Notes under the pieces: model-generated
What the model was told of the DNA's origin: nothing
The model's input: the letters and a program-made list of their open reading frames with translations, nothing else
Databases searched by the model: none
Shown: piece after piece, positions 532 to 43,233 of the stretch
Layout: each line of letters opens with the position of its first letter
Position numbering within the stretch: the first letter of the stretch is position 1
Translations under genes and position numbers: made by a program
From: a virus
Taxonomy: Duplodnaviria > Heunggongvirae > Uroviricota > Caudoviricetes
Direction: 5' to 3' (one strand)
Virus record (IMG/VR): IMGVR_UViG_2516143027_000009
DNA length: 43,233 nucleotides

Positions 532-1071
532 ATGAAGAAAGTTTTTCTTTGCGCCATCTTAGCCTCCTTAAGCTATCCGGCTATCGCCTCATCATTGCAG
601 GATCAACTCTCGGCTGTCGCAGAAGCGGAACAGCAAGGTAAAAATGAAGAGCAAAGGCAGCATGACGAATGGGTCGCGGAGCGCAACAGGGAAATCCAGC
701 AAGAGAAGCAACGTCGCGCAAACGCCCAGGCCGCGGCTAATAAAAGAGCGGCAACGGCAGCAGCGAATAAGAAAGCTCGTCAGGATAAACTGGACGCCGA
801 AGCCACTGCGGACAAAAAACGCGATCAAAGTTATGAAGATGAGCTACGTAGCTTAGAGATTCAGAAACAAAAACTGGCGCTGGCGAAAGAAGAAGCCCGC
901 GTCAAGCGCGAAAACGAATTTATCGATCAGGAACTGAAGCACAAAGCTGCGCAAACCGATGTGGTGCAATCTGAAGCTGACGCAAACAGAAATATGACTG
1001 AAGGCGGTCGCGATCTGATGAAAAGCGTGGGCAAAGCAGAAGAGAACAAATCGGACAGCTGGTTTAATTAA
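532..1071 (+). CDS. yfgI: Secreted Lys/Glu/Ala-rich coiled-coil protein (host gene, likely YfgI-like)
   Basis: RBS AGGAGG upstream of ATG; N-terminal signal peptide; 179 aa charged low-complexity protein; adjacency to the lipoprotein gene. Symbol tentative. Confidence 0.55.
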   Translation: MKKVFLCAILASLSYPAIASSLQDQLSAVAEAEQQGKNEEQRQHDEWVAERNREIQQEKQRRANAQAAANKRAATAAANKKARQDKLDAEATADKKRDQSYEDELRSLEIQKQKLALAKEEARVKRENEFIDQELKHKAAQTDVVQSEADANRNMTEGGRDLMKSVGKAEENKSDSWFN

Positions 1072-1110
1072 TCGATGTAAGTAACTTCAAGCCTATAATT
1101 CTTGAAGATA

Positions 1111-1142
1111 AAAAACCCTCTGTAGTAACAGAGGGTTTTGTT
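1111..1142. terminator. Bidirectional rho-independent terminator after host genes
   Basis: Hairpin CCCTCTG-TAGTAA-CAGAGGG flanked by an A-tract and a T-tract. Confidence 0.6.
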
Positions 1143-1267
1143 CATTCATAGTGCAGGGATCAAAATCATTCCCACTCAATTATTTACGGCATGCATAACC
1201 AATTGGCTGGTAACAACTTTCTGTAACCTGATTTTCACCGTACCGTTTTATATACCGTCGCCGGAAA

Positions 1268-1765
1268 TCAGTGCCACGATTTTTGCTTCTTCAGTGAATC
1301 GTATTGCTGTTCGCAGGATTCTCCTGCAATCCGATACTTTTCAGCCTCAGCTGCTGTTGCGTTGTAAACTCGATTGCTTTCTTCAAGCATGTCGGCGAGC
1401 ACACCGATGACCTTGCTGGCTGGCGTGCCAGTGGGGAAAGATCCGGTATAGTGTTCGGCGAGTCGCTTGGTTTTGTCAAGCTCGGCGCGCAGGCTGTCAG
1501 CAGCGGCATTAGCATGCTCAGCATCAACACGCGCCACATCGATACGGGATTGTGCTTCACGTTCAATTTGTGTTTTCTCCTGATCACGTTGTGACCTGGC
1601 CTTATCATCAGCCTGTTTCTGATCTTCCTGTGCCTGCGCATACCCGGCATCGTACTGGCGGCTGCCGTGTATATTCCAGGCAACCACTCCGACGATGAAC
1701 AGAGCAGCAAGCATCAACACGATAAGCAGCTGTTTCCAATATGCTTTTACGAATGTCAGGATCAT
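1268..1765 (-). CDS. Rz-like inner-membrane spanin (i-spanin)
   Basis: N-terminal TM helix, charged coiled-coil periplasmic domain, last gene of the lysis cassette, overlaps the endolysin stop; contains a nested lipoprotein ORF in another frame. Confidence 0.65.
1291..1539 (-). CDS. Rz1-like outer-membrane lipoprotein spanin (o-spanin), nested inside Rz
   Basis: Out-of-frame ORF wholly inside the Rz-like gene; lipoprotein signal with lipobox LLTAC; Pro-rich short mature peptide. Start codon uncertain (several in-frame Met). Confidence 0.45.
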   Translation of the reverse strand: MWRVLMLSMLMPLLTACAPSLTKPSDSPNTIPDLSPLARQPARSSVCSPTCLKKAIEFTTQQQLRLKSIGLQENPANSNTIH

Positions 1766-2391
1766 ACCGCCAGCACCTTACTGGCATTGATGTATCGCGC
1801 GCGCCGGTCGTCGATGCCGTTCCGGCCACCATTGATAATCAGAGTTACACGTGCAATATCGCCGGTATACTTCATGCATCCTTTGCTGGCAAAGAACCAC
1901 GCCGCGCTACGAGCCGCATATTCGTCCTGCGCCAGCAGTTCAGGGCTCTCCAGCAGGTCAACCTTCAGACCGTTTCCGCAATCACGATAGTTATTCAAAC
2001 CGGTAATCTGGATAAGTCCGCGCCCTCGGTAATTCCAGCCATCACCAGGGGCATTGTTCCCCATGCGTTTGCTGTATACCAGATTTGCGATCGCGCGCTG
2101 GCGCTCAAGTGGCAATGGTGGTTCACCAGCACGGCGCCCCAATGCGTTGGCCTGTCCCTGAGTGAGACGCCCAGCCCGAACAAAGTTAGCCAGTCCGCTG
2201 ACGCTGTAGTTGAAATTCTCCTGCAACCGGGTGAAGCCTCCAGACTCATGCCCGACCTGAGCAATAAACATAGCCTGATCTTCTGGTTTGCTGATACCAA
2301 ACTCTTTCATCGCAGAAGTTATATGCGAGAACCAGCGTGCGGCCAGTGCCTCGCTGATACCAGCAGCTCGCTGGAATTGTTTAATCTCCAT
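1762..2391 (-). CDS. Endolysin, glycoside hydrolase family 19 (chitinase-like)
   Basis: Motifs HESGGF and [11 protein letters not shown] typical of GH19 lysozymes; start moved to Met MEIKQFQ (upstream ORF part overlaps the holin-like gene). Confidence 0.75.
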
Positions 2392-2689
2392 GTTTAGACC
2401 TCGATACTTTGAAAATTTGAACGACGTTACCGCGCGTTTTAATAACCGCAGCAAGCATGACAGCGTTGATAATGACCTCGGATAAATCCACAGCCATTGG
2501 CGTACGTAACCAGATTGCATAGGCGACTCGAACAGGAATACTGGCCGCAGCAACAATCAGGAAATAAGCAAGCCATCCTCCCCACCTTCGATGTTGAGAG
2601 CCGTTACGCCGGAATGTGACAACGCGAATTGCTATGCCAGTGCAAATAACTGCATTGGTGATAAGCAAAAAAAACTCATGCGTTACCAT
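2381..2689 (-). CDS. Holin or antiholin-like small membrane protein
   Basis: 102 aa, predicted multiple TM helices, sits between holin and endolysin. Confidence 0.45.
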
Positions 2690-3080
2690 CGTCTTTTCTC
2701 CCCGGAATTAACTCGCGTGGATTATCGGAACGGTGATAGAGCCATATACCAATACGCACAGCGACAATTGCTGACACGAATGCGCCTGCAGAGAAAACAA
2801 TCCCTTTTTCAAAAGAGTCCTGCGTGATGGTAGGGATCAGGCTGGCTATGCCGATAAGAATTGATGCTGCTGGTTTGTAAAAGAGAAGGCCGCAAAGAAA
2901 GCTGAGCATCGACAGGAGCACCCGGCGACGGATGGGGTACTCTACTGCAGAGGTAACAAAAATTACCGCCCCAGCCAAAGCCCCTAAAGCAACCTCCGGA
3001 GGGACACCTGCAATAACCGCAGCAAGAGAACCAAAACTAAGCAACTGATTTAATTGCTCACTTGTTACTTGAGCAGACAT
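2676..3080 (-). CDS. Holin (class I-like, three TM helices)
   Basis: 134 aa, three hydrophobic helices, charged C-terminus, first gene of the lysis cassette. Confidence 0.55.
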   Translation of the reverse strand: MSAQVTSEQLNQLLSFGSLAAVIAGVPPEVALGALAGAVIFVTSAVEYPIRRRVLLSMLSFLCGLLFYKPAASILIGIASLIPTITQDSFEKGIVFSAGAFVSAIVAVRIGIWLYHRSDNPRELIPGRKDDGNA

Positions 3081-3361
3081 ACTTTCTCCTGTTTACTATC
3101 TATAAGCCAGTCAATTATTGATGACTAAACCCGCATAGTAAACCATATATGAATCATTATTGTTCCGTATCATATATCTCAATAAAAGTACTAATGATTT
3201 TACAGAACGAGCCAGCAGAGTGGGGGCAGTTGTACAGGAACCATAGACTTAATTTTGTATTTAATAATGCTATGGTGTAATAAACCTGAACATGTATTTA
3301 AAATACGTACTGATTCATGATAGAATTCAAAGATAACTTTTCACAAACTCCGTTTTTGATA

Positions 3362-3388
3362 CCCGCAAAATATTGCGGGCTTTTTTTT
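3362..3388 (+). terminator. Rho-independent terminator, plus-strand orientation, overlapping tailspike stop
   Basis: Hairpin CCCGCAAAATATTGCGGG followed by T8 on the plus strand; the minus-strand reading lacks a U-tract. Confidence 0.5.
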
Positions 3389-6300
3389 AACGTTCTTCCA
3401 GAGACTGAATCCGCTCTTTTATCTTATCCATTTCTCTGCGCTGCCATGCCGCCTCGATATAGAATAAGAGATCAGGTCTGACCCCCCATCTAGATCCTGC
3501 TGGCGTTATTTCAACGCGCTCAATGATGTCTTCCATTACCATCACTGGATTATCATCCTCATCAACAATGATGCTCCCTTCATTATCAGTCAGCGGCATT
3601 TCCCTTTGGCCAGTAATGACGTCATCATATACTGCGGGATAATCGTCATAGCAAAGAAAGGCATAGCGGCATGTTGTGCTTTCTTCTTCCATGAGTCCGT
3701 GAGAAATAAGAACATCACGAAGTTGCTGCGCGATTACACCATGATGTATCCTCGCCCCTTCTTCCCCCTTTATAGCGACAGCGTTCAGCCATTTATAAGC
3801 GATATACCTGACGTCACCCCAGGCATCCAGCAATGCTTCGTCAGGAGAGACCGGCTCTGTCTTTAATGTTCCGTCACTGGTAACCACAGGATTGGAGCCA
3901 AGATAAACTGTCGAGAACCTGTTTCCCGGACCACCAAGAGCATTTACATTATCAAGATAAGGTTTAACATCTCCGTTCTCAAAAAGATGTTCGAGTGCGT
4001 TATATACCGCGCGACGTGGAGTACTGCTTCCGGAACCATGCAACGTTATCATTGCACCATCTGCTGAAGACGTTGTTTCACCGCCGCTAACGATTAATCT
4101 CTGAGCGGTAACATCATCAGACGGTACTTTCTTCGCAATAATGGCGTAATTACCCTCAAGTTTGACTTCCGCGCGAACTTGTCCTGATGTACCTGCATGG
4201 ACAGTCAGTGACTGGACGGCAACATCATCTGTGAAATCAACGGGTACAGGAACCGTCCTCACGCCTGACGTCGACATAAAAGTAGGAAGCGTTCTGTTAG
4301 GAGTGGCTCCGTAGACAAAATCCCTTGAAACAAATTCTTCCTGTTTAATTTTCACCCTGAAACAATACAAATCAGCCGGGTGACCATCGTGAACATAAGG
4401 ATATTTTCTGTTGTTATCCCCTATGCTCCATGGGTTTAGAAAGTCTTCCCCACCGAAAATGTAGTACAGCCAGTTGTCTTTGATACAAACTGAACCAACA
4501 CCAACCGCAGAGTTAACTATTCCGCCCTGATAAATCTGATCAGTAACATTAACCCACTCTACATTATCCAGACTCCACTCATTGACGTTAACTCTGGTCA
4601 TAAATGTTCTTGGATAATTTCCTGCATAACGGTTATCAGGTTCTCCTCCTTCCCACTCACCAAATGCGCGCTCACTGCCAAAAATAATCAGCTCATCGCC
4701 AACTTTGGCAAAAGGAAGGTTTGAGTGATGAACATTATTTGGGAAGCGAAGAGAATTCCATGATGTACCTAAATCAGAGCTTCTGTGCAATGAACTACCG
4801 GGTTGAGTACTTAATGTCCCCCTGGTCGTCAGATACAGAATGCCATCATAATATTTTACACATGGCTCAGATGCATTCGCCTCATATTCTGCAGGTATGC
4901 GTCTGCGAACAAAGCTACCAGGAGAACCGAAAGCATCAGAGAAATAGAGTATCCCAAGCTCGCGTGGACCAATATCACCATTATGGTAGCCAACAGCAAA
5001 ACTGTTATCGCTAATCGTCGCAAAACTGTGAATCTCAGTAACAGGAGTGCTTCCGTCAACAAAAGAAGGAATAGTTCCAAGACTGGTTTTTCTCCATGGT
5101 GACGAGTGAAATGATGTACCAAAACTCCAGTATCTACCCTCGTTATTCTGATCCACATCCTGGGTATTTTGCGTCGTAACTGTAAAAGTATTTTTATCAA
5201 TAACAGTAGTCACCGTCATATTCCCGGTAACACCTGTAACACCAGAGTTTGAGAAGTTGACAAAATCACCAGCAAATAATCCGTGATCAGTAATGCGAAT
5301 ATAAGCGACTTGCTGATTTGCTGCTTTCGTTATACCACCATAAACGCGAAGGCTGCGACTCATTGGGCGATCCCACAACTCTGCAACCTGCAGTTTATTT
5401 CCGCTCACGGTCCGCGTCTCAATTACAGCAAAAAGGCGATTTCTGACAACCCCCATACTCATGCAGTGATAGTTAACTGTGGGATAGTTTTCATGTAAAT
5501 CTGTAAGCCATTCCGGCGTTGTCCAGGTCTTCCCGTCATCTCCTGAGCGAACCCATGCAACATGGAGGTTATTTACACCATGGCGGTCTCCAGCCATAAA
5601 AGGCGCATAGATGACATTGTCATATACAAACGTTTTATCCTGCGTCCAGGCGTTGTACCACGGTGTATCTGTAATTTTAAATAACTCTCCCTGGATAAAA
5701 TCTTCAGAAGCATAAAAAAGAGGCTGACCCGGTATTCTCTCAAATAAAAAACGAGCATTTTTAAATCGACTGACATCCGGAAGAGTTGATACTTTAAAAG
5801 TAAGCCCTAATCCGTCAATTTTATAACCTGGAGATGAGGCTTCAAGGCACGCGCTTATTGCAGTGGAATCGTCATTTATACCATCACCAACAGCTCCAAA
5901 ATCTTTGGGGCTAATAGCATCACGCATTTTATCCTGGAACGTTCGGTACACAGCCCCAGAACCATACTGAATAAACCAACCAAAACCACCAACAACCCCG
6001 GCGATTGCAGCATCGACATAATTACGCATTGAGCGATTATTTACAGCGTCCTGCTCAAATGATGGATCTGCAAGGTTAGAAATTTTGTTTTGCTTTGCAT
6101 CGTAATATTTTGCAAGCAAAGATGGTTTCATCAATGCACGTCTGAACCACCCAAAACATTGCTGGATCAGCATCGTCAGGTAGTCAAAGGCATCTTCATG
6201 CACTTCGGGGAAAAATTTTCCCTGATTGCGAAGGTCTGTCTCCTGCACTACATCAAGCACACGATCTATCGTAATTCGCCATCCAGTAGCAAGCGGAGAC

Positions 6301-6506
6301 GGAAGAACCACAGAACCGCCACTATAAGTGCCCGCCCCAGTTACCGTATAACCGGTATCCAGAACCAATTCTGTTACGTTTCCGTTCAGGTCAGACACCT
6401 GAACAACCAGGTCTGATTTTCTGAAAATTCGAAAAGTATACGGAAACGATGTCGTAACGCCGTTACCGGTGTATTCGTTGTGGTCAACTTCGGTTGAGAC
6501 CGTCAT
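3387..6506 (-). CDS. Tailspike or tail fiber protein with C-terminal intramolecular chaperone (peptidase S74-like) domain
   Basis: 1039 aa; N-terminal podovirus tail-fiber anchor-like segment (TGNGVTTSFPYTF); C-terminal ~150 aa resembles the self-cleaving chaperone domain of endosialidases and L-shaped fibers; position after the internal virion protein genes. Confidence 0.75.
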   Translation of the reverse strand: MTVSTEVDHNEYTGNGVTTSFPYTFRIFRKSDLVVQVSDLNGNVTELVLDTGYTVTGAGTYSGGSVVLPSPLATGWRITIDRVLDVVQETDLRNQGKFFPEVHEDAFDYLTMLIQQCFGWFRRALMKPSLLAKYYDAKQNKISNLADPSFEQDAVNNRSMRNYVDAAIAGVVGGFGWFIQYGSGAVYRTFQDKMRDAISPKDFGAVGDGINDDSTAISACLEASSPGYKIDGLGLTFKVSTLPDVSRFKNARFLFERIPGQPLFYASEDFIQGELFKITDTPWYNAWTQDKTFVYDNVIYAPFMAGDRHGVNNLHVAWVRSGDDGKTWTTPEWLTDLHENYPTVNYHCMSMGVVRNRLFAVIETRTVSGNKLQVAELWDRPMSRSLRVYGGITKAANQQVAYIRITDHGLFAGDFVNFSNSGVTGVTGNMTVTTVIDKNTFTVTTQNTQDVDQNNEGRYWSFGTSFHSSPWRKTSLGTIPSFVDGSTPVTEIHSFATISDNSFAVGYHNGDIGPRELGILYFSDAFGSPGSFVRRRIPAEYEANASEPCVKYYDGILYLTTRGTLSTQPGSSLHRSSDLGTSWNSLRFPNNVHHSNLPFAKVGDELIIFGSERAFGEWEGGEPDNRYAGNYPRTFMTRVNVNEWSLDNVEWVNVTDQIYQGGIVNSAVGVGSVCIKDNWLYYIFGGEDFLNPWSIGDNNRKYPYVHDGHPADLYCFRVKIKQEEFVSRDFVYGATPNRTLPTFMSTSGVRTVPVPVDFTDDVAVQSLTVHAGTSGQVRAEVKLEGNYAIIAKKVPSDDVTAQRLIVSGGETTSSADGAMITLHGSGSSTPRRAVYNALEHLFENGDVKPYLDNVNALGGPGNRFSTVYLGSNPVVTSDGTLKTEPVSPDEALLDAWGDVRYIAYKWLNAVAIKGEEGARIHHGVIAQQLRDVLISHGLMEEESTTCRYAFLCYDDYPAVYDDVITGQREMPLTDNEGSIIVDEDDNPVMVMEDIIERVEITPAGSRWGVRPDLLFYIEAAWQRREMDKIKERIQSLEER

Positions 6507-6610
6507 GTTAAATCTCCAGATAGTCGCAGCACCCGTTGCGCCGCATATCTGGTTATTCTATTACCTGGAAAACCACATATGGATAGAAAGGCTGTAAATA
6601 CGAATAGATA

Positions 6611-6625
6611 TTACCTTTCAGGTAA
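6611..6625. promoter_or_regulatory. Operator-like palindrome TTACC-TTTCA-GGTAA (copy 1)
   Basis: Same 5-5-5 palindrome as in the OR/OL regions; lies between the tailspike start and the 6702 gene. Confidence 0.5.
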
Positions 6626-6662
6626 TTTGCAAAACGTGCTGGATAGCAAACAAATTATTTGA

Positions 6663-6682
6663 TACTGTATAAATATACAGTT
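6663..6682. promoter_or_regulatory. LexA (SOS) box TACTGTATAAATATACAGTT
   Basis: Perfect CTGT-N8-ACAG with AT-rich spacer, about 20 bp upstream of the RBS and ATG of the 6702 gene. Confidence 0.7.
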
Positions 6683-6701
6683 ATTGCATGGAGAAGATAA
6701 G

Positions 6702-6959
6702 ATGCAGCAGTATCACTATCCACTGGAAGACGGATTTACCGAAAGGATTCACACGCCGGGAGGCGTCAGGTCACTGGTGGAGGGATCGCACTTGATGAAA
6801 TTACTCCGGGATCTCGATAAGGATGGATTTAATGTCGATGGCCCACTTGCCGAACTGACTGCACTGATTAACTACGTCACCAGCTCACAGATGTCTATGC
6901 AGGATCTGCAAACACATCTCGACTATTGTGCCGAACAATTACGAAAACAAACCCGGTAA
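6702..6959 (+). CDS. Small antirepressor-like protein: standalone copy of the module shared by three antirepressor fusions
   Basis: RBS GGAGAAG then ATG 6702; 85 aa; roughly 40% identity by eye to the C-terminal ~80 aa of the 8108, 9930 and 41299 gene products (shared PL..G...IH.P.GV..L.E.S.LM.LL..L..DG..V.G..AELT....Y......QTH..Y). Confidence 0.6.
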   Translation: MQQYHYPLEDGFTERIHTPGGVRSLVEGSHLMKLLRDLDKDGFNVDGPLAELTALINYVTSSQMSMQDLQTHLDYCAEQLRKQTR

Positions 6960-6981
6960 ATTTAAAGGCCGCAAGAGCGGC

Positions 6982-7710
6982 CTATCGTTTCGCTTTGTGC
7001 TCGTCCCAGCACGTTTTGCACCATGCCATTAAGCCGTCCGCATTTTGATTATTAGGGTAAAAGCTGGTCCGTTTTCTGCGGACATTACAAATTGGGCACC
7101 ACTTCATATGGCGTGTATTCTTTGGGCCATCGAGACACCTTGCACACCACTTAGTCAATCCATCTGGATTTTTTGACGATTTCCGGAATTTGTCATATGG
7201 AAGGTTTATTCTGCATCGCAAACACTGCTTGCGGCCACTTGAAACTCTGTTAGCTGATTCTTCTTTTGGCGGCGATACAGAAGGTATTCTTGCTGGCTCT
7301 GATACTGCCTGAGGTGCTTTTTTAGATGACTGAGACGATATGTCATCACCAGGGAATCTTCCATGATATGCCGGACGCGTTGACACTCCAGGTGGAAGCT
7401 CAGCTGTAAACGGCTTTGGCTGAATCAGTTGCCTCTCTTTTGCTAACTCCTGCTGTTTATAATATGTCTGGATTACCGCACTATCATAAGCAGGAGGTAC
7501 GGAAATATCAGGCGCGTTACCTCCAGTTTTTTGAAAATGAGTAGATGTGTGTTCTATCACCTGTGTACGACTAATCGTTACCTCCCCATCTTCGGTCTTT
7601 ATCGTTTTGTTCTGATTAACGACCGTACGATCAGAGATCTTAGTCTTGTTCTGGTTGATAACGTAAATAATCACCGCAACCACACCAACAACTATCCAGA
7701 AAACTTCCAT
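6982..7710 (-). CDS. Membrane-anchored protein with Pro-rich linker and tandem CxxC zinc-ribbon repeats
   Basis: N-terminal TM helix; two repeats C-x2-C...DGL..WC-x2-C; operator copy in its promoter region. Confidence 0.5.
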   Translation of the reverse strand: MEVFWIVVGVVAVIIYVINQNKTKISDRTVVNQNKTIKTEDGEVTISRTQVIEHTSTHFQKTGGNAPDISVPPAYDSAVIQTYYKQQELAKERQLIQPKPFTAELPPGVSTRPAYHGRFPGDDISSQSSKKAPQAVSEPARIPSVSPPKEESANRVSSGRKQCLRCRINLPYDKFRKSSKNPDGLTKWCARCLDGPKNTRHMKWCPICNVRRKRTSFYPNNQNADGLMAWCKTCWDEHKAKR

Positions 7711-7951: not shown

Positions 7952-8107
7952 ATGCGTTAAGCACAGCTATATCCGAATTATGGTGGGCTGGGCAGGGGTC
8001 CGAAAGGACGCCGGTACCACTTAGGCCGGTACGCCAACCTTGTCCAGTTCACCACCAGTAATTGGCGTTGCGGTGGTGATTAAAATCACTAAGTGGAGAT
8101 AACCACC

Positions 8108-8818
8108 ATGGCTAATGCTCAAACTTCCATCTTCAAATTTGAATCTGTTAACCCTATCCGTTCCATCATTATCGATGGCCAACCATGGTTTGTAGCCCAA
8201 GACGTTTGTAGTGCGCTGCGTATCCAAAACGTCACCCAAGCACTTGAAAAACTGGATGATGATGAAAGGTCTATGTTCAACATAGGGCATGAACATCGTG
8301 CAATTTTTGACAGCCGAGTAAAAGAGATCAACATCATCTCCGAGTCAGGCCTCTACACACTGATCCTCCGCTGCCGCGACGCAGTGACACCAGGCACTAT
8401 CCCCTACCGCTTTCGTAAATGGGTTACAGGTGAGGTTCTTCCTCAGATCCGCCGCACCGGAAGTTACATTAAAAACTCGCTCCCGCAGGAAGAACGCATA
8501 AAGATGGTTGCCGACCAGGTAGCCAACGCCACGGCGTCAGCAGTAATGCAGGCGATGAAGATAGAGAACAAAACCTACAGTGCCCCACTGAAGCCCGGCT
8601 ACCGTAGCCTGATTCATTCGCCGTCTGGTGTTCTCGGCCTGACGGAGAACTCACTGCTGATGAATCTGCTGAACCAGTTACAGGAAGACGGGCACGACGT
8701 ATCGGGCGCGGCGGCGGAACTGACCACCATGTTCTGCTACATCGTCGGTGTGAGCAAATGCCTGCGTGATATCCAGACCCACGCGGAGTACATCAACGAC
8801 AAGGCAGGGTTCTTCTGA
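8108..8818 (+). CDS. Antirepressor-like protein, N-terminal BRO-N domain fused to the shared C-terminal module
   Basis: N-terminal region typical of the BRO-N family (IFKFE...IDGQPWFVAQDVCSAL); RBS AAGTGGAG before ATG 8108; C-terminal 80 aa near-identical to the 9930 and 41299 products. Confidence 0.7.
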   Translation: MANAQTSIFKFESVNPIRSIIIDGQPWFVAQDVCSALRIQNVTQALEKLDDDERSMFNIGHEHRAIFDSRVKEINIISESGLYTLILRCRDAVTPGTIPYRFRKWVTGEVLPQIRRTGSYIKNSLPQEERIKMVADQVANATASAVMQAMKIENKTYSAPLKPGYRSLIHSPSGVLGLTENSLLMNLLNQLQEDGHDVSGAAAELTTMFCYIVGVSKCLRDIQTHAEYINDKAGFF

Positions 8819-8840
8819 CGGCGGCGGCACAGGGACGTGC
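8576..8840 (+). repeat. Copy A of a ~260-bp near-identical repeat (3' end of BRO gene plus about 20 bp after the stop)
   Basis: Near-identical to 41706..41970 (direct) and 9906..10160 (inverted); estimated over 95% identity by eye. Confidence 0.8.
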
Positions 8841-9905: not shown

Positions 9906-10160
9906 GCACGTCCCTGTGCCGCCGTTCTGTCAGAAGAACCCTGCCTTGTCGTTGATGTATTCCGCGTGCGTCTGGATATCACGCAGGCATTTGCTCACAC
10001 CAACGATGTAGCAGAACATGGTGGTCAGCTCCGCCGCCGCGCCCGATACATCGTGCCCGTCTTCCTGTAACTGGTTCAGCAGATTCATCAGCAGTGAGTT
10101 CTCCGTCAGGCCGAGAACACCCGACGGCGAATGAATCAGACTGCGGTAGCCTGGCTTCAA
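9906..10160 (-). repeat. Copy B (inverted) of the ~260-bp repeat
   Basis: Reverse complement matches copies A and C, including the post-stop segment. Confidence 0.8.
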
Positions 10161-10868
10161 TGGATAACCATAACATTTTGTCTGTGTTTTAATTGCCTCA
10201 CGAAGCGCATCTAACATCTTGACTGCCACTTCATCATTCTCTGATGCAGATCCAGCAGGGAGATACTCCCCTTCAAGCGGAACCCGAGCAACAAGAGACA
10301 ACGCTTCGGCAAATTGATCTTCACCAATTTCTTTGTACGAACAGCCAAAATGAGATTTCAGTGACGACCACATGGTGATCATCGCCTTAGCCTGTTTTTC
10401 TTTTGGCAGAGACTGACCGCGACTCATGACGAGTTGTTTAATGGCTTCCTGCTGTTCAGTTGTTATTTTACCCGGCAACGCCTTTTTAGCTTTGCGTGGG
10501 TTAACCACATGGCCTTTAGTCCAGTACTCGTAGAGCACATCGTCACACTCTTCCTGATACTGGATTACCTTGTCGCGGATTTCAGGGCGGACTTTGTTAG
10601 GGCTGATGCTGTTCAACCAAGCTGCCAATTTTCGTAAAGCCATACAAATCATGGCTTGCACCCCACCGGCAGAAGGTATGGTGATTTCCACCATACCCTT
10701 CGAGAAGCGTTGAGAAATCTTCTTATGTTGAGATTTCCAGTCTAGCCCCATTCCCTCAACGATAGGTTTCATTGGGGTATACGGTTCGCCGTTGTGATTG
10801 ACAACATAAAGCTCTGCGCCGTGGAATGGCACGTTGATAGTAGATACTGCTGTTGCTATACTCGTCAT
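9930..10868 (-). CDS. ant: Antirepressor Ant-like protein (P22 Ant N-terminal-like domain plus shared C-terminal module)
   Basis: N-terminal FHGAELYVVNHNGEPYTPMKPIVEGMGLDWKSQ resembles the P22 antirepressor N-domain (from memory); located downstream of an Arc-like gene with a divergent Mnt-like gene, as in P22 immI. Confidence 0.65.
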   Translation of the reverse strand: MTSIATAVSTINVPFHGAELYVVNHNGEPYTPMKPIVEGMGLDWKSQHKKISQRFSKGMVEITIPSAGGVQAMICMALRKLAAWLNSISPNKVRPEIRDKVIQYQEECDDVLYEYWTKGHVVNPRKAKKALPGKITTEQQEAIKQLVMSRGQSLPKEKQAKAMITMWSSLKSHFGCSYKEIGEDQFAEALSLVARVPLEGEYLPAGSASENDEVAVKMLDALREAIKTQTKCYGYPLKPGYRSLIHSPSGVLGLTENSLLMNLLNQLQEDGHDVSGAAAELTTMFCYIVGVSKCLRDIQTHAEYINDKAGFF

Positions 10869-10942: not shown

Positions 10943-11108
10943 ATGCCACGCTATTCTTCTCACCAGTGAGTCCATACACTTTCCTCAGCTGATAGATAAT
11001 CTCTGTATTGAACTTTCGGCATTCTTTTTCGCCATTTCTTTCAATAGCTAACTTCACATCGTCCGGAAAACGAACTCGTCGTTGACACATCTCTTTTGCT
11101 TTTTGCAT
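10941..11108 (-). CDS. arc: Arc-like ribbon-helix-helix repressor
   Basis: 55 aa from ATG 11108 with RBS AAGGAG; motif RVRFPDDVKLAIERNGEKECRKFNTEIIYQL matches the Arc/Mnt RHH pattern. Confidence 0.65.
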   Translation of the reverse strand: MQKAKEMCQRRVRFPDDVKLAIERNGEKECRKFNTEIIYQLRKVYGLTGEKNSVA

Positions 11109-11228
11109 TTCATATCTCCTTAGCCCCACCGTGGGGCAAAATAATTGTCACACCGTGCGTCATTGATGTCAAGCACACGGTGAGGCATACTTCAATCATT
11201 GCAAGTAACTCAATATTTGGTGAAGAAC

Positions 11229-11660
11229 ATGAGCAGAGAAGATCCACAACTAAGGATCAGACTTCCCGTCGAAGTAAAAGAAAAAATAGAAATTTCTGCA
11301 AAAGCCAATAAGCGATCAATGAACGCTGAAATAGTACAACGTCTTGACACCAGCTTTCTGAAAGATATTCATGAAGATGACGTAATTTCTGCTTATGAAG
11401 CAAAAATCATTGCAAACAATGCACGACATGAAATATCAAATATTATTTTCAAAAGAACCTTTAATGAAATTAATAAGAAAATAACACTTGGACATACAAG
11501 TTTTTATATAAACCTTAATGACCTTGAACTGGAATCACTTGCAGATAATGATTACCAGATCATCTTTGAAAAAACATTTAATAGGCTCAATGAACTAGGT
11601 TACATCATCTGTGAAAACTCATGGGATGCAGATGGTTTTGGAATTGAAATACCTGAATAG
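11229..11660 (+). CDS. mnt: Mnt-like ribbon-helix-helix repressor with a C-terminal extension
   Basis: N-terminus MSREDPQLRIRLPVEVKEKIEISAKANKRSMNAEIVQRL closely parallels P22 Mnt; divergent from arc-ant; AT-rich. Confidence 0.65.
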   Translation: MSREDPQLRIRLPVEVKEKIEISAKANKRSMNAEIVQRLDTSFLKDIHEDDVISAYEAKIIANNARHEISNIIFKRTFNEINKKITLGHTSFYINLNDLELESLADNDYQIIFEKTFNRLNELGYIICENSWDADGFGIEIPE

Positions 11661-11749
11661 GAAGAACAAAAGGCGTGTACATATTACACGTCTTTAATAC
11701 AATTGAAAAACGCCACATTACTGATGTATGTTACAACAAGGAGCGATAT

Positions 11750-12314
11750 TTTGAAAACCATATCTATATTAAAGGTTGCATTAGGCGTCGCTATTATTTT
11801 GACTCTCTCAATATTGTTTTATTTTTACCACAAACAAACTGCTATTGCTCTTGATAGTCACGCGGCAAACTCATTTTTCTCAGAGTACATAGTGCCGCTA
11901 TCAGGAAGCGGTATAACAAATAAATATACTGACTATGACATCAAATATGGAATTGATGATGGGGAGACTATTGTATTACATGTAATCATTAAAAACCTAA
12001 TGACAGTAAATAAAAATACAGACTTCAACGATAAAAATACAATACATCACAACAACAGCAAAACATTAATTTCTTATAGTAGCAACATCTATACGGATAA
12101 ATACCTAAAATACATATCAGAAGATACAATAAAAGAAACCCGCGAAAAGTTAAAAAACATATATTGTGCATCCGGCAGTTTTCACAAATTATCGCCGCAA
12201 GAGCGTTTATTCTACGAAGCAAGAAAACAACGTAAGTCAATAATATTACATTATTATGCTGATTCAGGGGAGACACTCATATTTAATATTGGGGTTTCCC
12301 CTGAATCATGCTAA
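11750..12314 (+). CDS. Single-pass membrane protein, candidate superinfection-exclusion protein (sieA-like position)
   Basis: AAGGAG RBS 7 nt before a TTG start (alternative starts ATG 11724 or TTG 11703); N-terminal TM helix; very AT-rich; lies between mnt and the ejection-protein genes. Confidence 0.5.
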
Positions 12315-41982: not shown

Positions 41983-43233
41983 TTATTCCCCCGCTATCCA
42001 CTTCTCAAACTTCGACGGGGAGAACGGAATCAGATCTGTATGCTCCCCGTTAATCCAGGAATCAATCATATCGGCCCACTGCTGCAACATGTAGGCGCGC
42101 TGTCTGGCGTATTCCGCTTTGTTATATACGGCGCGCACACCTTTCTGCTCATGTGCCAGAGCCTTTTCAATCCAGTCTGAAGGATAACCAGCCTCATGCA
42201 ACAACGTACTGGCTGTACGGCGCATATCATGTACAGTGAAGTCCTGAATATGCTCACCATCTTCATTTATTATTTTCACCGTTCTGTCGATCAGAGAGTT
42301 CAGCGCGGCATTAGATAATGGCTTCCGGAAATTGTAACGACCAGGAACCAGATATTCACTTCCACCAGCGCACATCTGCAACCCGACCAATATATCCTGT
42401 GCCTGTTTAGGCAGGTAAATAACGTGCGCCCGGCTTCCCTTCATGCGGTCTGGAGGAATTGTCCATGTCCATTTTTTAAAATCTATTTCATCCCACGTTG
42501 CATTGGTGAATTCGCCCTTACGAACCATAGTGATAAGCACCAGTTTTAAAGCCATTTTCATAGTGCCCATAGCACCAATGGCATCCAGCGTACGGAAGAA
42601 CAGGCCAATTTCTTCTGGTGTCAGTGTTCGCTCTCGTGGTTTAAATATGGCGATAGACGAAGGTTTAATGTCAGCCGCAGGATTAAACAAACCATGACCA
42701 CGGTCATTGGCGTGACGGTATACGCTGCTGATGATCTCCCTTGCCTGTACTGCTGTTGCCCGACCACCGCGTTCGACAATCCGGTCACACAAATCACGAA
42801 CCATCGATGTGGTAATTTCAGCCATCATTTTGTTGCCAAGAACCGGAAGTATGTCACGGTCGATCACTGCCTGCTTCATTGCGCGGGTACTTTCAGCCAG
42901 GATGACGTGTTTCATATAACTGTCGGTATGTACCGCAAACGTCTCGGCACCACGAATCTTTTTGATACCGTCACGTTTAGCCGCAGCCGGCGACTGGCCT
43001 GCTTTAAGCAGCTTCTTTGCAGCAATCAGTTCTTCTCGCGCTTCTGCCAGGCTGATACCGTCACGCCCATACTGCCCGATTACCAGTGTTTCGCGGCGAC
43101 CGTTGATACGGTAGTCATAGCGAAACGAGACCGTGCCTGACGTAAGCACAGCTACATACAGCCCGTCACGATCGGAGACCTTGTACAGTTTGTCCTGCGG
43201 CTTGAGGTTTTTTAATTTTGTATCGGTAAGCAC
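41983..43233 (-). CDS. int: Tyrosine integrase (P4-like), 5' end cut by the window edge
   Basis: N-terminal DUF4102-like arm-binding region (LTDTKLKNLKPQDKLYKVSDRDGLYV...), catalytic core with HDMRRT and C-terminal Tyr; the ORF reaches the window end without a clear start. Confidence 0.85.
   Translation of the reverse strand: MLTDTKLKNLKPQDKLYKVSDRDGLYVAVLTSGTVSFRYDYRINGRRETLVIGQYGRDGISLAEAREELIAAKKLLKAGQSPAAAKRDGIKKIRGAETFAVHTDSYMKHVILAESTRAMKQAVIDRDILPVLGNKMMAEITTSMVRDLCDRIVERGGRATAVQAREIISSVYRHANDRGHGLFNPAADIKPSSIAIFKPRERTLTPEEIGLFFRTLDAIGAMGTMKMALKLVLITMVRKGEFTNATWDEIDFKKWTWTIPPDRMKGSRAHVIYLPKQAQDILVGLQMCAGGSEYLVPGRYNFRKPLSNAALNSLIDRTVKIINEDGEHIQDFTVHDMRRTASTLLHEAGYPSDWIEKALAHEQKGVRAVYNKAEYARQRAYMLQQWADMIDSWINGEHTDLIPFSPSKFEKWIAGE

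Follow-up and report, generated by a model that had tools for sequence, protein, structure and literature searches.

Which capsular or surface polysaccharide is addressed by the tailspike encoded in this stretch of DNA, and by what kind of enzyme? The gene occupies positions 3387..6506 on the minus strand of the window, by which we mean the whole 43,233-nt stretch analysed, and the ORF list shows it as one uninterrupted frame of 1039 aa, stop codon included (1039 codons, with the stop codon at 3387-3389). GGAG lies 7 nt upstream of the ATG. A preliminary description had placed the frame at exactly these coordinates without stating its strand, and had divided the product into a conserved N-terminal anchor, a central region of roughly 700 aa and a chaperone-like C-terminus. 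That three-part layout is real (anchor, aa 1-~194; body, aa ~195/205-876; Peptidase_S74 domain, aa 877-1039), and the estimate for the central region was close to the about 670-680 aa found here. The same description, however, took the central region to be probably a beta-helix depolymerase and left its receptor and glycan specificity unassigned, and on these points our reading departs from it. We consider it very probable, from the sequence comparisons below, that an integrated podovirus of Uetakevirus type (epsilon15/phiV10/ZX5-like) has its tailspike encoded here, and that this spike acts as an endo-alpha-2,8-sialidase (endo-N-acetylneuraminidase, CAZy GH58) with the polysialic-acid K1 capsule of Escherichia coli as its specific target.

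The body carries four endosialidase Pfam domains, all far above their cut-offs. An N-terminal extension (End_N_terminal, PF12218, E 5.9e-32; aa 205-271, 5694..5894, minus strand) precedes the catalytic six-bladed beta-propeller (End_beta_propel, PF12217, E 1.4e-233; aa 272-721, 4344..5693, minus strand), which covers its profile fully (1-367). Inserted in the propeller is a beta-barrel (End_beta_barrel, PF12195, E 3.2e-46; aa 383-465, 5112..5360, minus strand), while a stalk or 'tail spike' domain (End_tail_spike, PF12219, E 8.4e-78; aa 722-876, 3879..4343, minus strand) closes the mature protein at its C-terminus. The closest solved relative is endoNF, gp17 of phage K1F (PDB 1v0e, 3gvl and, for the chaperone, 3gw6), whose 1v0e/3gvl sequence matches aa 205-876 end to end with E=0; the phi92 endosialidase 4hiz also matches (E 1.6e-271). 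Both the best Pfam match and the PDB sequence match are thus far beyond chance. EndoNF has its domains in the same order, and identity to it is 57% in the extension, 69% in the propeller, 67.5% in the barrel and 56% in the stalk. A single-sequence AlphaFold2 model was unusable (mean pLDDT 32, pTM 0.23, no residue above 70), so the fold assignment rests on identity to solved structures, and at 56-69% domain identity to such a structure we regard the fold as settled.

Residue conservation within this framework is extensive. The active-site residues of the propeller are H309, R515, E547, R562 and R613, which align to, and are identical with, H350, R549, E581, R596 and R647 of endoNF. Seven endoNF positions described as catalytic or intolerant of substitution (H350, R549, E581, K585, R596, R647 and N699; PMC12632334) are conserved without exception (7/7), and the propeller holds two Asp-boxes, SGDDGKTW at aa 321 and SSDLGTSW at aa 576. 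The barrel corresponds to a polysialic-acid binding site of endoNF (PMC12632334). Relative to endoNF, the window protein has a 7-aa insertion, FVDGSTP, at aa ~482-488. In the stalk, R837 and S848 of endoNF have their counterparts in R803 and S814, whereas M819 stands in place of Q853; we take these three to be stalk binding-site positions, after Schwarzer et al. 2009. Processivity may therefore differ from that of endoNF. A propeller with Asp-boxes, the catalytic residues and the combination of barrel insertion and stalk together place the protein among the GH58 endosialidases, a family marked by an inverting mechanism, processivity and a trimeric 'mushroom' shape (PMC12632334, PMC5380687). 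Because the body carries endosialidase domains and aligns to endoNF, the specificity that had been left unassigned is predicted to be alpha-2,8-polysialic acid, that is, the K1 capsule.

Two phages bear nearly the same enzyme. The spike of phage vB_EcoP_ZX5, also a Uetakevirus (ORF7, QTH80017.1; PMC9782041), is the same 1039-aa protein at 99.8% identity, with two amino-acid differences (S368R and E976D), and RefSeq WP_000218907.1 from E. coli APEC O1 is again the same protein, its gene DNA being 99.8% identical. ZX5 and APEC O1 share with the window the position of the spike before the holin and endolysin genes, the prophage type and the att core; there is essentially no difference between them and the window beyond slight variation in the accessory genes adjacent to the spike. 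ZX5 is a viable temperate phage which forms plaques on an O87:H52:K1 strain, and the same three domains were reported for its spike in 2022 (PMC9782041). The second relative, SiaK1 of CUS-3 (ABQ88383.1), a P22-like Lederbergvirus prophage of E. coli K1 RS218, has the same body and chaperone in its tailspike. Between gene nt 699 and 3091 (aa 233-1031) the siaK1 DNA shows 99.5% identity to the gene in the window; at protein level the propeller and barrel do not differ at all (100%), the extension is 76% identical, and the stalk change at endoNF Q853 is present in CUS-3 too. In the CUS-3 record, endo-alpha-sialidase activity is backed by evidence from a direct assay. The two tailspikes differ in their last 8 aa and in their flanks, and above all in their anchors, which are unrelated (P22 gp9-type in CUS-3, Uetakevirus-type in the window; 8% identity over aa 1-204). 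CUS-3 further carries neuO, a capsule O-acetyltransferase gene with AAGACTC repeats, beside its spike, whereas the window does not; a search for these CUS-3-like heptanucleotide repeats across the window found none.

The anchor of the window protein (aa 1-194; 5925..6506, minus strand) belongs instead to the epsilon15/phiV10 tailspike type, and a conserved anchor, as initially proposed, is indeed common to many tailspikes. Over aa 1-166 it is 64-72% identical to the tailspikes of E15-like and SPN1S Salmonella phages and of O157 typing phage 10, and this similarity over aa 1-~166 is matched by its location in a genome of the same type. The epsilon15, phiV10 and SPN1S tailspikes resemble the window protein in anchor, gene position and genome type but not in their bodies, which are O-antigen-specific beta-helix or other enzymes and not endosialidases. 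The anchor of endoNF also differs, being T7-type. PDB 28lx/8ck1 (Dpo31/Dpo36) matches aa 1-180 (E 1.5e-32) and PHROG tail families match with E down to 2.6e-140; Pfam gave no match. The spike of phage EC.W1-9 has an anchor that is 97.5% identical over aa 1-204 and is joined to a different body. In DNA the two are also 97.5% identical, from a point 475 nt ahead of the gene to gene nt 582.

Judged from these alignments, the gene reads as a mosaic in which a short junction, aa 195-232 (5811..5924, minus strand), containing KDFGAVGDGINDD, links a Uetakevirus anchor to an endosialidase body of CUS-3 type. With blastn, the breakpoint for EC.W1-9 falls at gene nt 582 and that for CUS-3 at nt 699, and a three-way DNA alignment sets the junction between them, nearly identical neither to the anchor donor nor to CUS-3. 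Within it, at aa 203-215, stands the motif K/R-DFGA-x-GDG-x-x-DD, which opens beta-helix (pectate-lyase-like) bodies and the endosialidase N-terminal extension alike, and which matches End_N_terminal weakly, as it does Pect-lyase_RHGA_epim (E 0.001, below cut-off). The latter match at the junction, to PF12708, is sub-threshold and spans 22 aa and only the first residues of that family. We tentatively raise the possibility that the motif is a preferred recombination point at which structurally unrelated enzymes are swapped onto one Uetakevirus anchor, aa 195-232 then being the trace of a third parent. Among the tailspikes compared, those from 497 E. coli genomes included, identity to this anchor also ended elsewhere, around aa 166 and within gene nt 120-350. 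The tailspike is in any case a routine example of module exchange.

At the other end of the protein, the intramolecular chaperone domain (aa 877-1039; 3390..3878, minus strand) is recognised by Peptidase_S74 (PF13884, aa 877-937, 41.4 bits against a cut-off of 22) and by the solved endoNF chaperone 3gw6 (E 5.6e-94 over aa 757-1038), with 52% identity to the endoNF domain. In the K1F record the boundary between gp17* and gp17-CTD lies at Ser911, which aligns to S877, while K916 aligns to K882; domain homology and the Ser-Lys dyad (endoNF S911/K916) thus both indicate membership in Peptidase S74. The chaperone-like, self-cleaving C-terminus anticipated in the preliminary description is supported by these matches, and release of the domain by self-cleavage before S877 is predicted, within the local sequence SNPVVT/SDGTLKTEP (slash, predicted cut).

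The surroundings of the gene are those of a prophage. The rest of the window resembles phiV10, TL-2011b and ZX5 at 96-98% identity, with an att core at one end and an integrase at the other. The attachment core, ATTGAGTGGGAATGATT (1164..1180, minus strand), is an exact match to the ZX5 att core in PMC9782041 and marks where the tailspike-bearing prophage ends, with yfgH and yfgI to its left and the lysis genes and tailspike to its right. Since the window stops at the integrase gene or within it, the second att site is outside view. Around the tailspike gene, a promoter and terminator scan returned weak consensus matches only; one hairpin lies immediately past the stop codon, its T-run on the opposite strand. 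Of 5426 complete E. coli genomes, 72 contained the full gene, in copies 99.7-99.9% identical in DNA to that of the window, and named K1 strains among the carriers include APEC O1:K1:H7 isolates and O7:K1 CE10. These copies are annotated 'endosialidase catalytic beta-propeller domain-containing protein', the RefSeq name thus already being endosialidase. Both the literature and RefSeq already cover this protein, its domains and the class of its substrate.

By homology to K1F endoNF, three chains would assemble into a trimer, with folding nucleated by the C-terminal 163-aa chaperone domain, which would then cut itself off before Ser877 by means of the Ser877/Lys882 dyad to leave a mature spike of 876 aa. 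The first ~194 residues would attach the spike to the virion tail. Polysialic acid would be bound by the beta-barrel and stalk and cleaved at the active site of the beta-propeller (E547, R562 and R613, with H309 and R515), and the phage may in this manner tunnel through the capsule to the outer membrane.

The reading proposed initially, in which the ~700 aa at the centre would fold as a right-handed parallel beta-helix and depolymerise O-antigen or capsule as a lyase or hydrolase, draws some plausibility from the company this anchor keeps. The EC.W1-9 'eliminase' body matches Pect-lyase_RHGA_epim (E 1.1e-11), GH28-related and 'right-handed parallel beta-helix' bodies are carried by the same anchor in E. 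coli genomes, and the junction motif DFGAVGDGINDD faintly resembles the start of Pect-lyase_RHGA_epim, at the sub-threshold score given above. Yet a Pfam scan of the whole protein found no beta-helix or pectate-lyase family at E 0.01, the crystal-structure sequence of endoNF, whose catalytic domain is a beta-propeller (PF12217), aligns with aa 205-876 with no large gap, and neither an Asp-box nor any of the sialidase catalytic residues is missing. The stalk of the endosialidase family contains only a short triple beta-helix stretch, a fold unlike the right-handed beta-helix first suggested. We reject the beta-helix depolymerase as scarcely credible.

Two further readings were considered. The spike might bind polysialic acid without cleaving it, or act on a modified substrate such as O-acetylated K1 or another sialic-acid polymer. 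The stalk-site substitution of Q853 by M819 would fit such a shift, as would the finding that discrimination between K1 strains as hosts maps to loops of the barrel and residues of the stalk (PMC12632334) and the neuO repeat region accompanying the same body in CUS-3. We nevertheless judge a shifted function very unlikely, given that the catalytic residues are all intact, that the identical CUS-3 propeller is recorded as an active endosialidase and that ZX5, bearing this spike, plaques on a K1 strain. Alternatively, an intact-looking gene might persist in a defective prophage as a relic no longer made into virions and lacking any present role, a reading for which the second att site, being out of view, leaves some room. 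The full-length frame is, however, two amino acids from the spike of a phage isolated as infectious particles; genes for virion structure, lysis, replication and the integrase are all there and share 96-98% identity with viable phages, and the DNA of the gene is conserved at 99.7-99.9% across the 72 genomes. A relic is thus highly improbable, and the active, K1-specific endosialidase remains the reading that we adopt.

Endosialidases attract applied interest as anti-capsule agents and as probes for polysialic acid, to which the copy in the window adds nothing beyond the CUS-3 enzyme. Its value lies rather in annotation, in that the prophage can be marked as K1-capsule-specific and its host, by implication, as a K1 strain of ExPEC/APEC type. 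For the family, the Uetakevirus anchor becomes the third type, after those of T7-like K1F and P22-like CUS-3, on which one endosialidase body is found as it moves between phage groups.

The tailspike gene is an uninterrupted frame of 1039 codons on the minus strand of the window (3387..6506), exactly where the preliminary description had placed it, and GGAG lies 7 nt 5' of its ATG. Five Pfam domains were detected in the product, every one far over its curated cut-off: End_N_terminal (aa 205-271, E 5.9e-32), End_beta_propel (aa 272-721, E 1.4e-233, full profile covered), End_beta_barrel, inserted in the propeller (aa 383-465, E 3.2e-46), End_tail_spike (aa 722-876, E 8.4e-78) and Peptidase_S74, the 'chaperone of endosialidase' (41.4 bits over aa 877-937; cut-off 22). 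Among all PDB sequences, aa 205-876 aligned end to end with endoNF, the endosialidase tailspike gp17 of phage K1F (1v0e, 3gvl, 3gvj and 3gvk, E = 0), with a further match to the endosialidase of phi92 (4hiz, E 1.6e-271); aa 757-1038 matched an endoNF construct of stalk plus chaperone whose structure is solved (3gw6, E 5.6e-94). Identity to endoNF was 57% in the N-terminal extension, 69% in the propeller, 67.5% in the barrel, 56% in the stalk and 52% in the chaperone. A single-sequence AlphaFold model of the spike was unusable (pLDDT 32).

The centre of the protein had previously been read as a beta-helix depolymerase of unassigned specificity. That reading is ruled out by the endosialidase domains and the end-to-end endoNF alignment, which make the catalytic domain a beta-propeller, and a Pfam scan of the whole spike protein returned no beta-helix or pectate-lyase family at E 0.01. 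Its capsule depolymerase nature stands; the beta-helix fold does not.

Individual residues were compared in an alignment with the complete gp17 of K1F, for which precursor, mature gp17* and gp17-CTD are annotated in the record. All five endoNF active-site residues (H350, R549, E581, R596 and R647) are identical in the query, at H309, R515, E547, R562 and R613, as are the second-shell residues Q330, D331, H527, S528, K585 and N699; deep mutational scanning of the K1F tailspike classed these positions as catalytic or substitution-intolerant (PMC12632334). The protein also has a pair of Asp-boxes, SGDDGKTW (aa 321) and SSDLGTSW (aa 576). The endoNF maturation boundary before Ser911, taken from the K1F mature peptides, aligns with S877, and endoNF K916 with K882, within the site sequence SNPVVT|SDGTLKTEP. 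Together with the Peptidase_S74 match, this conservation bears out the self-cleaving C-terminal chaperone proposed earlier, the cleavage itself being predicted by homology. Three endoNF stalk positions reportedly described by Schwarzer et al. 2009, R837, S848 and Q853, were also compared: the first two are conserved and the last is replaced by methionine, a change shared with the prophage CUS-3, judging by the 99.5% DNA identity in this region.

In tblastn searches of phage records, the full-length spike was 99.8-99.9% identical to that of the temperate phage vB_EcoP_ZX5 and to two 'Phi05' contigs that lack annotation; aa 193-1039 were 95% identical to the endosialidases of CUS-3 (recorded as active), phiv205-1 and vB_EcoP-720R6, and K1F-like and other K1 phages followed at ~62%. 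ZX5 ORF7, described as an N-terminal tail-fibre domain, an endosialidase and an endosialidase chaperone (PMC9782041), differs from the query at two residues only, S368R and E976D. This near-identical phage has a K1 host, having been isolated on O87:H52:K1, and is classified in Uetakevirus (PMC9782041).

The gene is a mosaic. From 475 nt upstream to gene nt 582 (window 6982..5925, aa 1-194) the DNA is 97.5% identical to phage EC.W1-9, whose spike, unlike the query, continues from the anchor into an 'eliminase' body of the pectate-lyase-like type (PF12708, E 1.1e-11). Gene nt 699-3091 (window 5808..3416, aa 233-1031) are 99.5% identical to CUS-3 siaK1; the CUS-3 anchor is unrelated (8% identity). 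The conserved N-terminal anchor of the preliminary description was correctly recognised: over aa 1-166 it shares 64-72% identity with the spikes of O157 typing phage 10 and of Salmonella phages resembling epsilon15, and the one solved relative is Dpo31/Dpo36 (28lx, 8ck1; E 1.5e-32). The intervening 116 nt (aa 195-232; window 5811-5924) closely match neither the EC.W1-9-like anchor donor nor CUS-3; they encode KDFGAVGDGINDD, a motif that weakly matches both End_N_terminal and the opening residues of the pectate-lyase-like family PF12708. A motif here, DFGAVGDGINDD, is found both in spike bodies of the pectate-lyase-like type and in the endosialidase N-terminal extension, and crossovers between unrelated spike bodies could favour this GDGxxDD motif. 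The G+C content of the tailspike region (~42-45%, versus ~50% in the flanking lysis and host genes) suits a horizontally exchanged module. Such exchange is documented for K1F and CUS-3 (review PMC5380687), and the query is a classic case, here with a third anchor type.

By homology with endoNF, we infer that the chains trimerise with the assistance of the C-terminal chaperone, which would then be self-removed by Ser877/Lys882-dependent cleavage. Residues 1-~194 would fix the mature 876-aa spike to the tail, polysialic acid would be held by the barrel and stalk, and the propeller would cut internal alpha-2,8 bonds, opening a path through the K1 capsule. Endosialidases reportedly have a trimeric mushroom shape and an inverting mechanism, and their processivity is said to rise once the chaperone is released (Stummeyer 2005, Schulz 2010, Schwarzer 2009, Morley 2009).

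Immediately 3' of the spike stop codon lies a GC-rich hairpin, CCCGCAAAATATTGCGGG (3362-3379), followed by a 306-nt gap and a holin-like gene; with its T-run on the plus strand, it would terminate opposite-direction transcription, not the spike transcript. ZX5 integrates at the guaA 3' end, and its core ATTGAGTGGGAATGATT (PMC9782041) occurs once in the window (1164-1180), with yfgI on one side and the lysis genes of the phage on the other. As the integrase ORF at the far end (41983..43233) reaches the window's last base, the second att site and guaA lie just outside. The remaining window is 96-98% identical to phiV10, TL-2011b, HEMP4 and ZX5; these matches, the att core and the integrase indicate a piece of E. 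coli chromosome (yfgH, yfgI) and, after it, a Uetakevirus prophage that appears to be complete.

Other features of the prophage were observed. Directly upstream of the spike region, a 242-aa ORF (6982-7710, minus strand; phrog_6762) is hydrophobic at its N-terminus, and its Cys-rich C-terminus is weakly like endonuclease VII and Lar-like zinc-finger segments; the APEC O1 annotation has no equivalent gene at the corresponding position. A 270-nt inverted repeat (8550-8819 / 9929-10198; arms 91% complementary, 1109 nt apart) could mediate inversion or module exchange. Its arms encode the ~90 C-terminal residues that two convergent genes of the anti-repressor type have in common, one for a Bro-N protein (8093..8818, plus) and one for a P22_AR_N protein (9930..10868, minus); ORF 6684..6959 carries a weaker copy of this C-terminal motif. 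A low-GC island (11199-12314; 35% G+C over 11001-12000 versus 45-50% nearby) has the appearance of a moron or accessory cassette. Its two genes run opposite to the tail genes. One (11199..11660) encodes an Arc-like ribbon-helix-helix protein (PF03869, E 1.2e-14); the product of the other (11703..12314; phrog_8033) has an N-terminal hydrophobic stretch and gave no Pfam match.

The protein is already known and the prophage is of a known type, which resolves the finding. The full gene occurred in 72 of 5426 complete E. coli genomes, including APEC O1, IHE3034, O7:K1 CE10 and O1:K1:H7 isolates, always named 'endosialidase catalytic beta-propeller domain-containing protein'. The anchor alone was present in 497 of the 5426, fused to GH28-related, SGNH/GDSL, beta-helix and other bodies. 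The body alone (3416-5808) was found at 263 places in 194/5426 genomes, with up to four copies per genome and two in APEC O1 and many others. These multiple copies imply that K1 strains often carry several endosialidase-bearing prophages, presumably the present type together with CUS-3-like ones.
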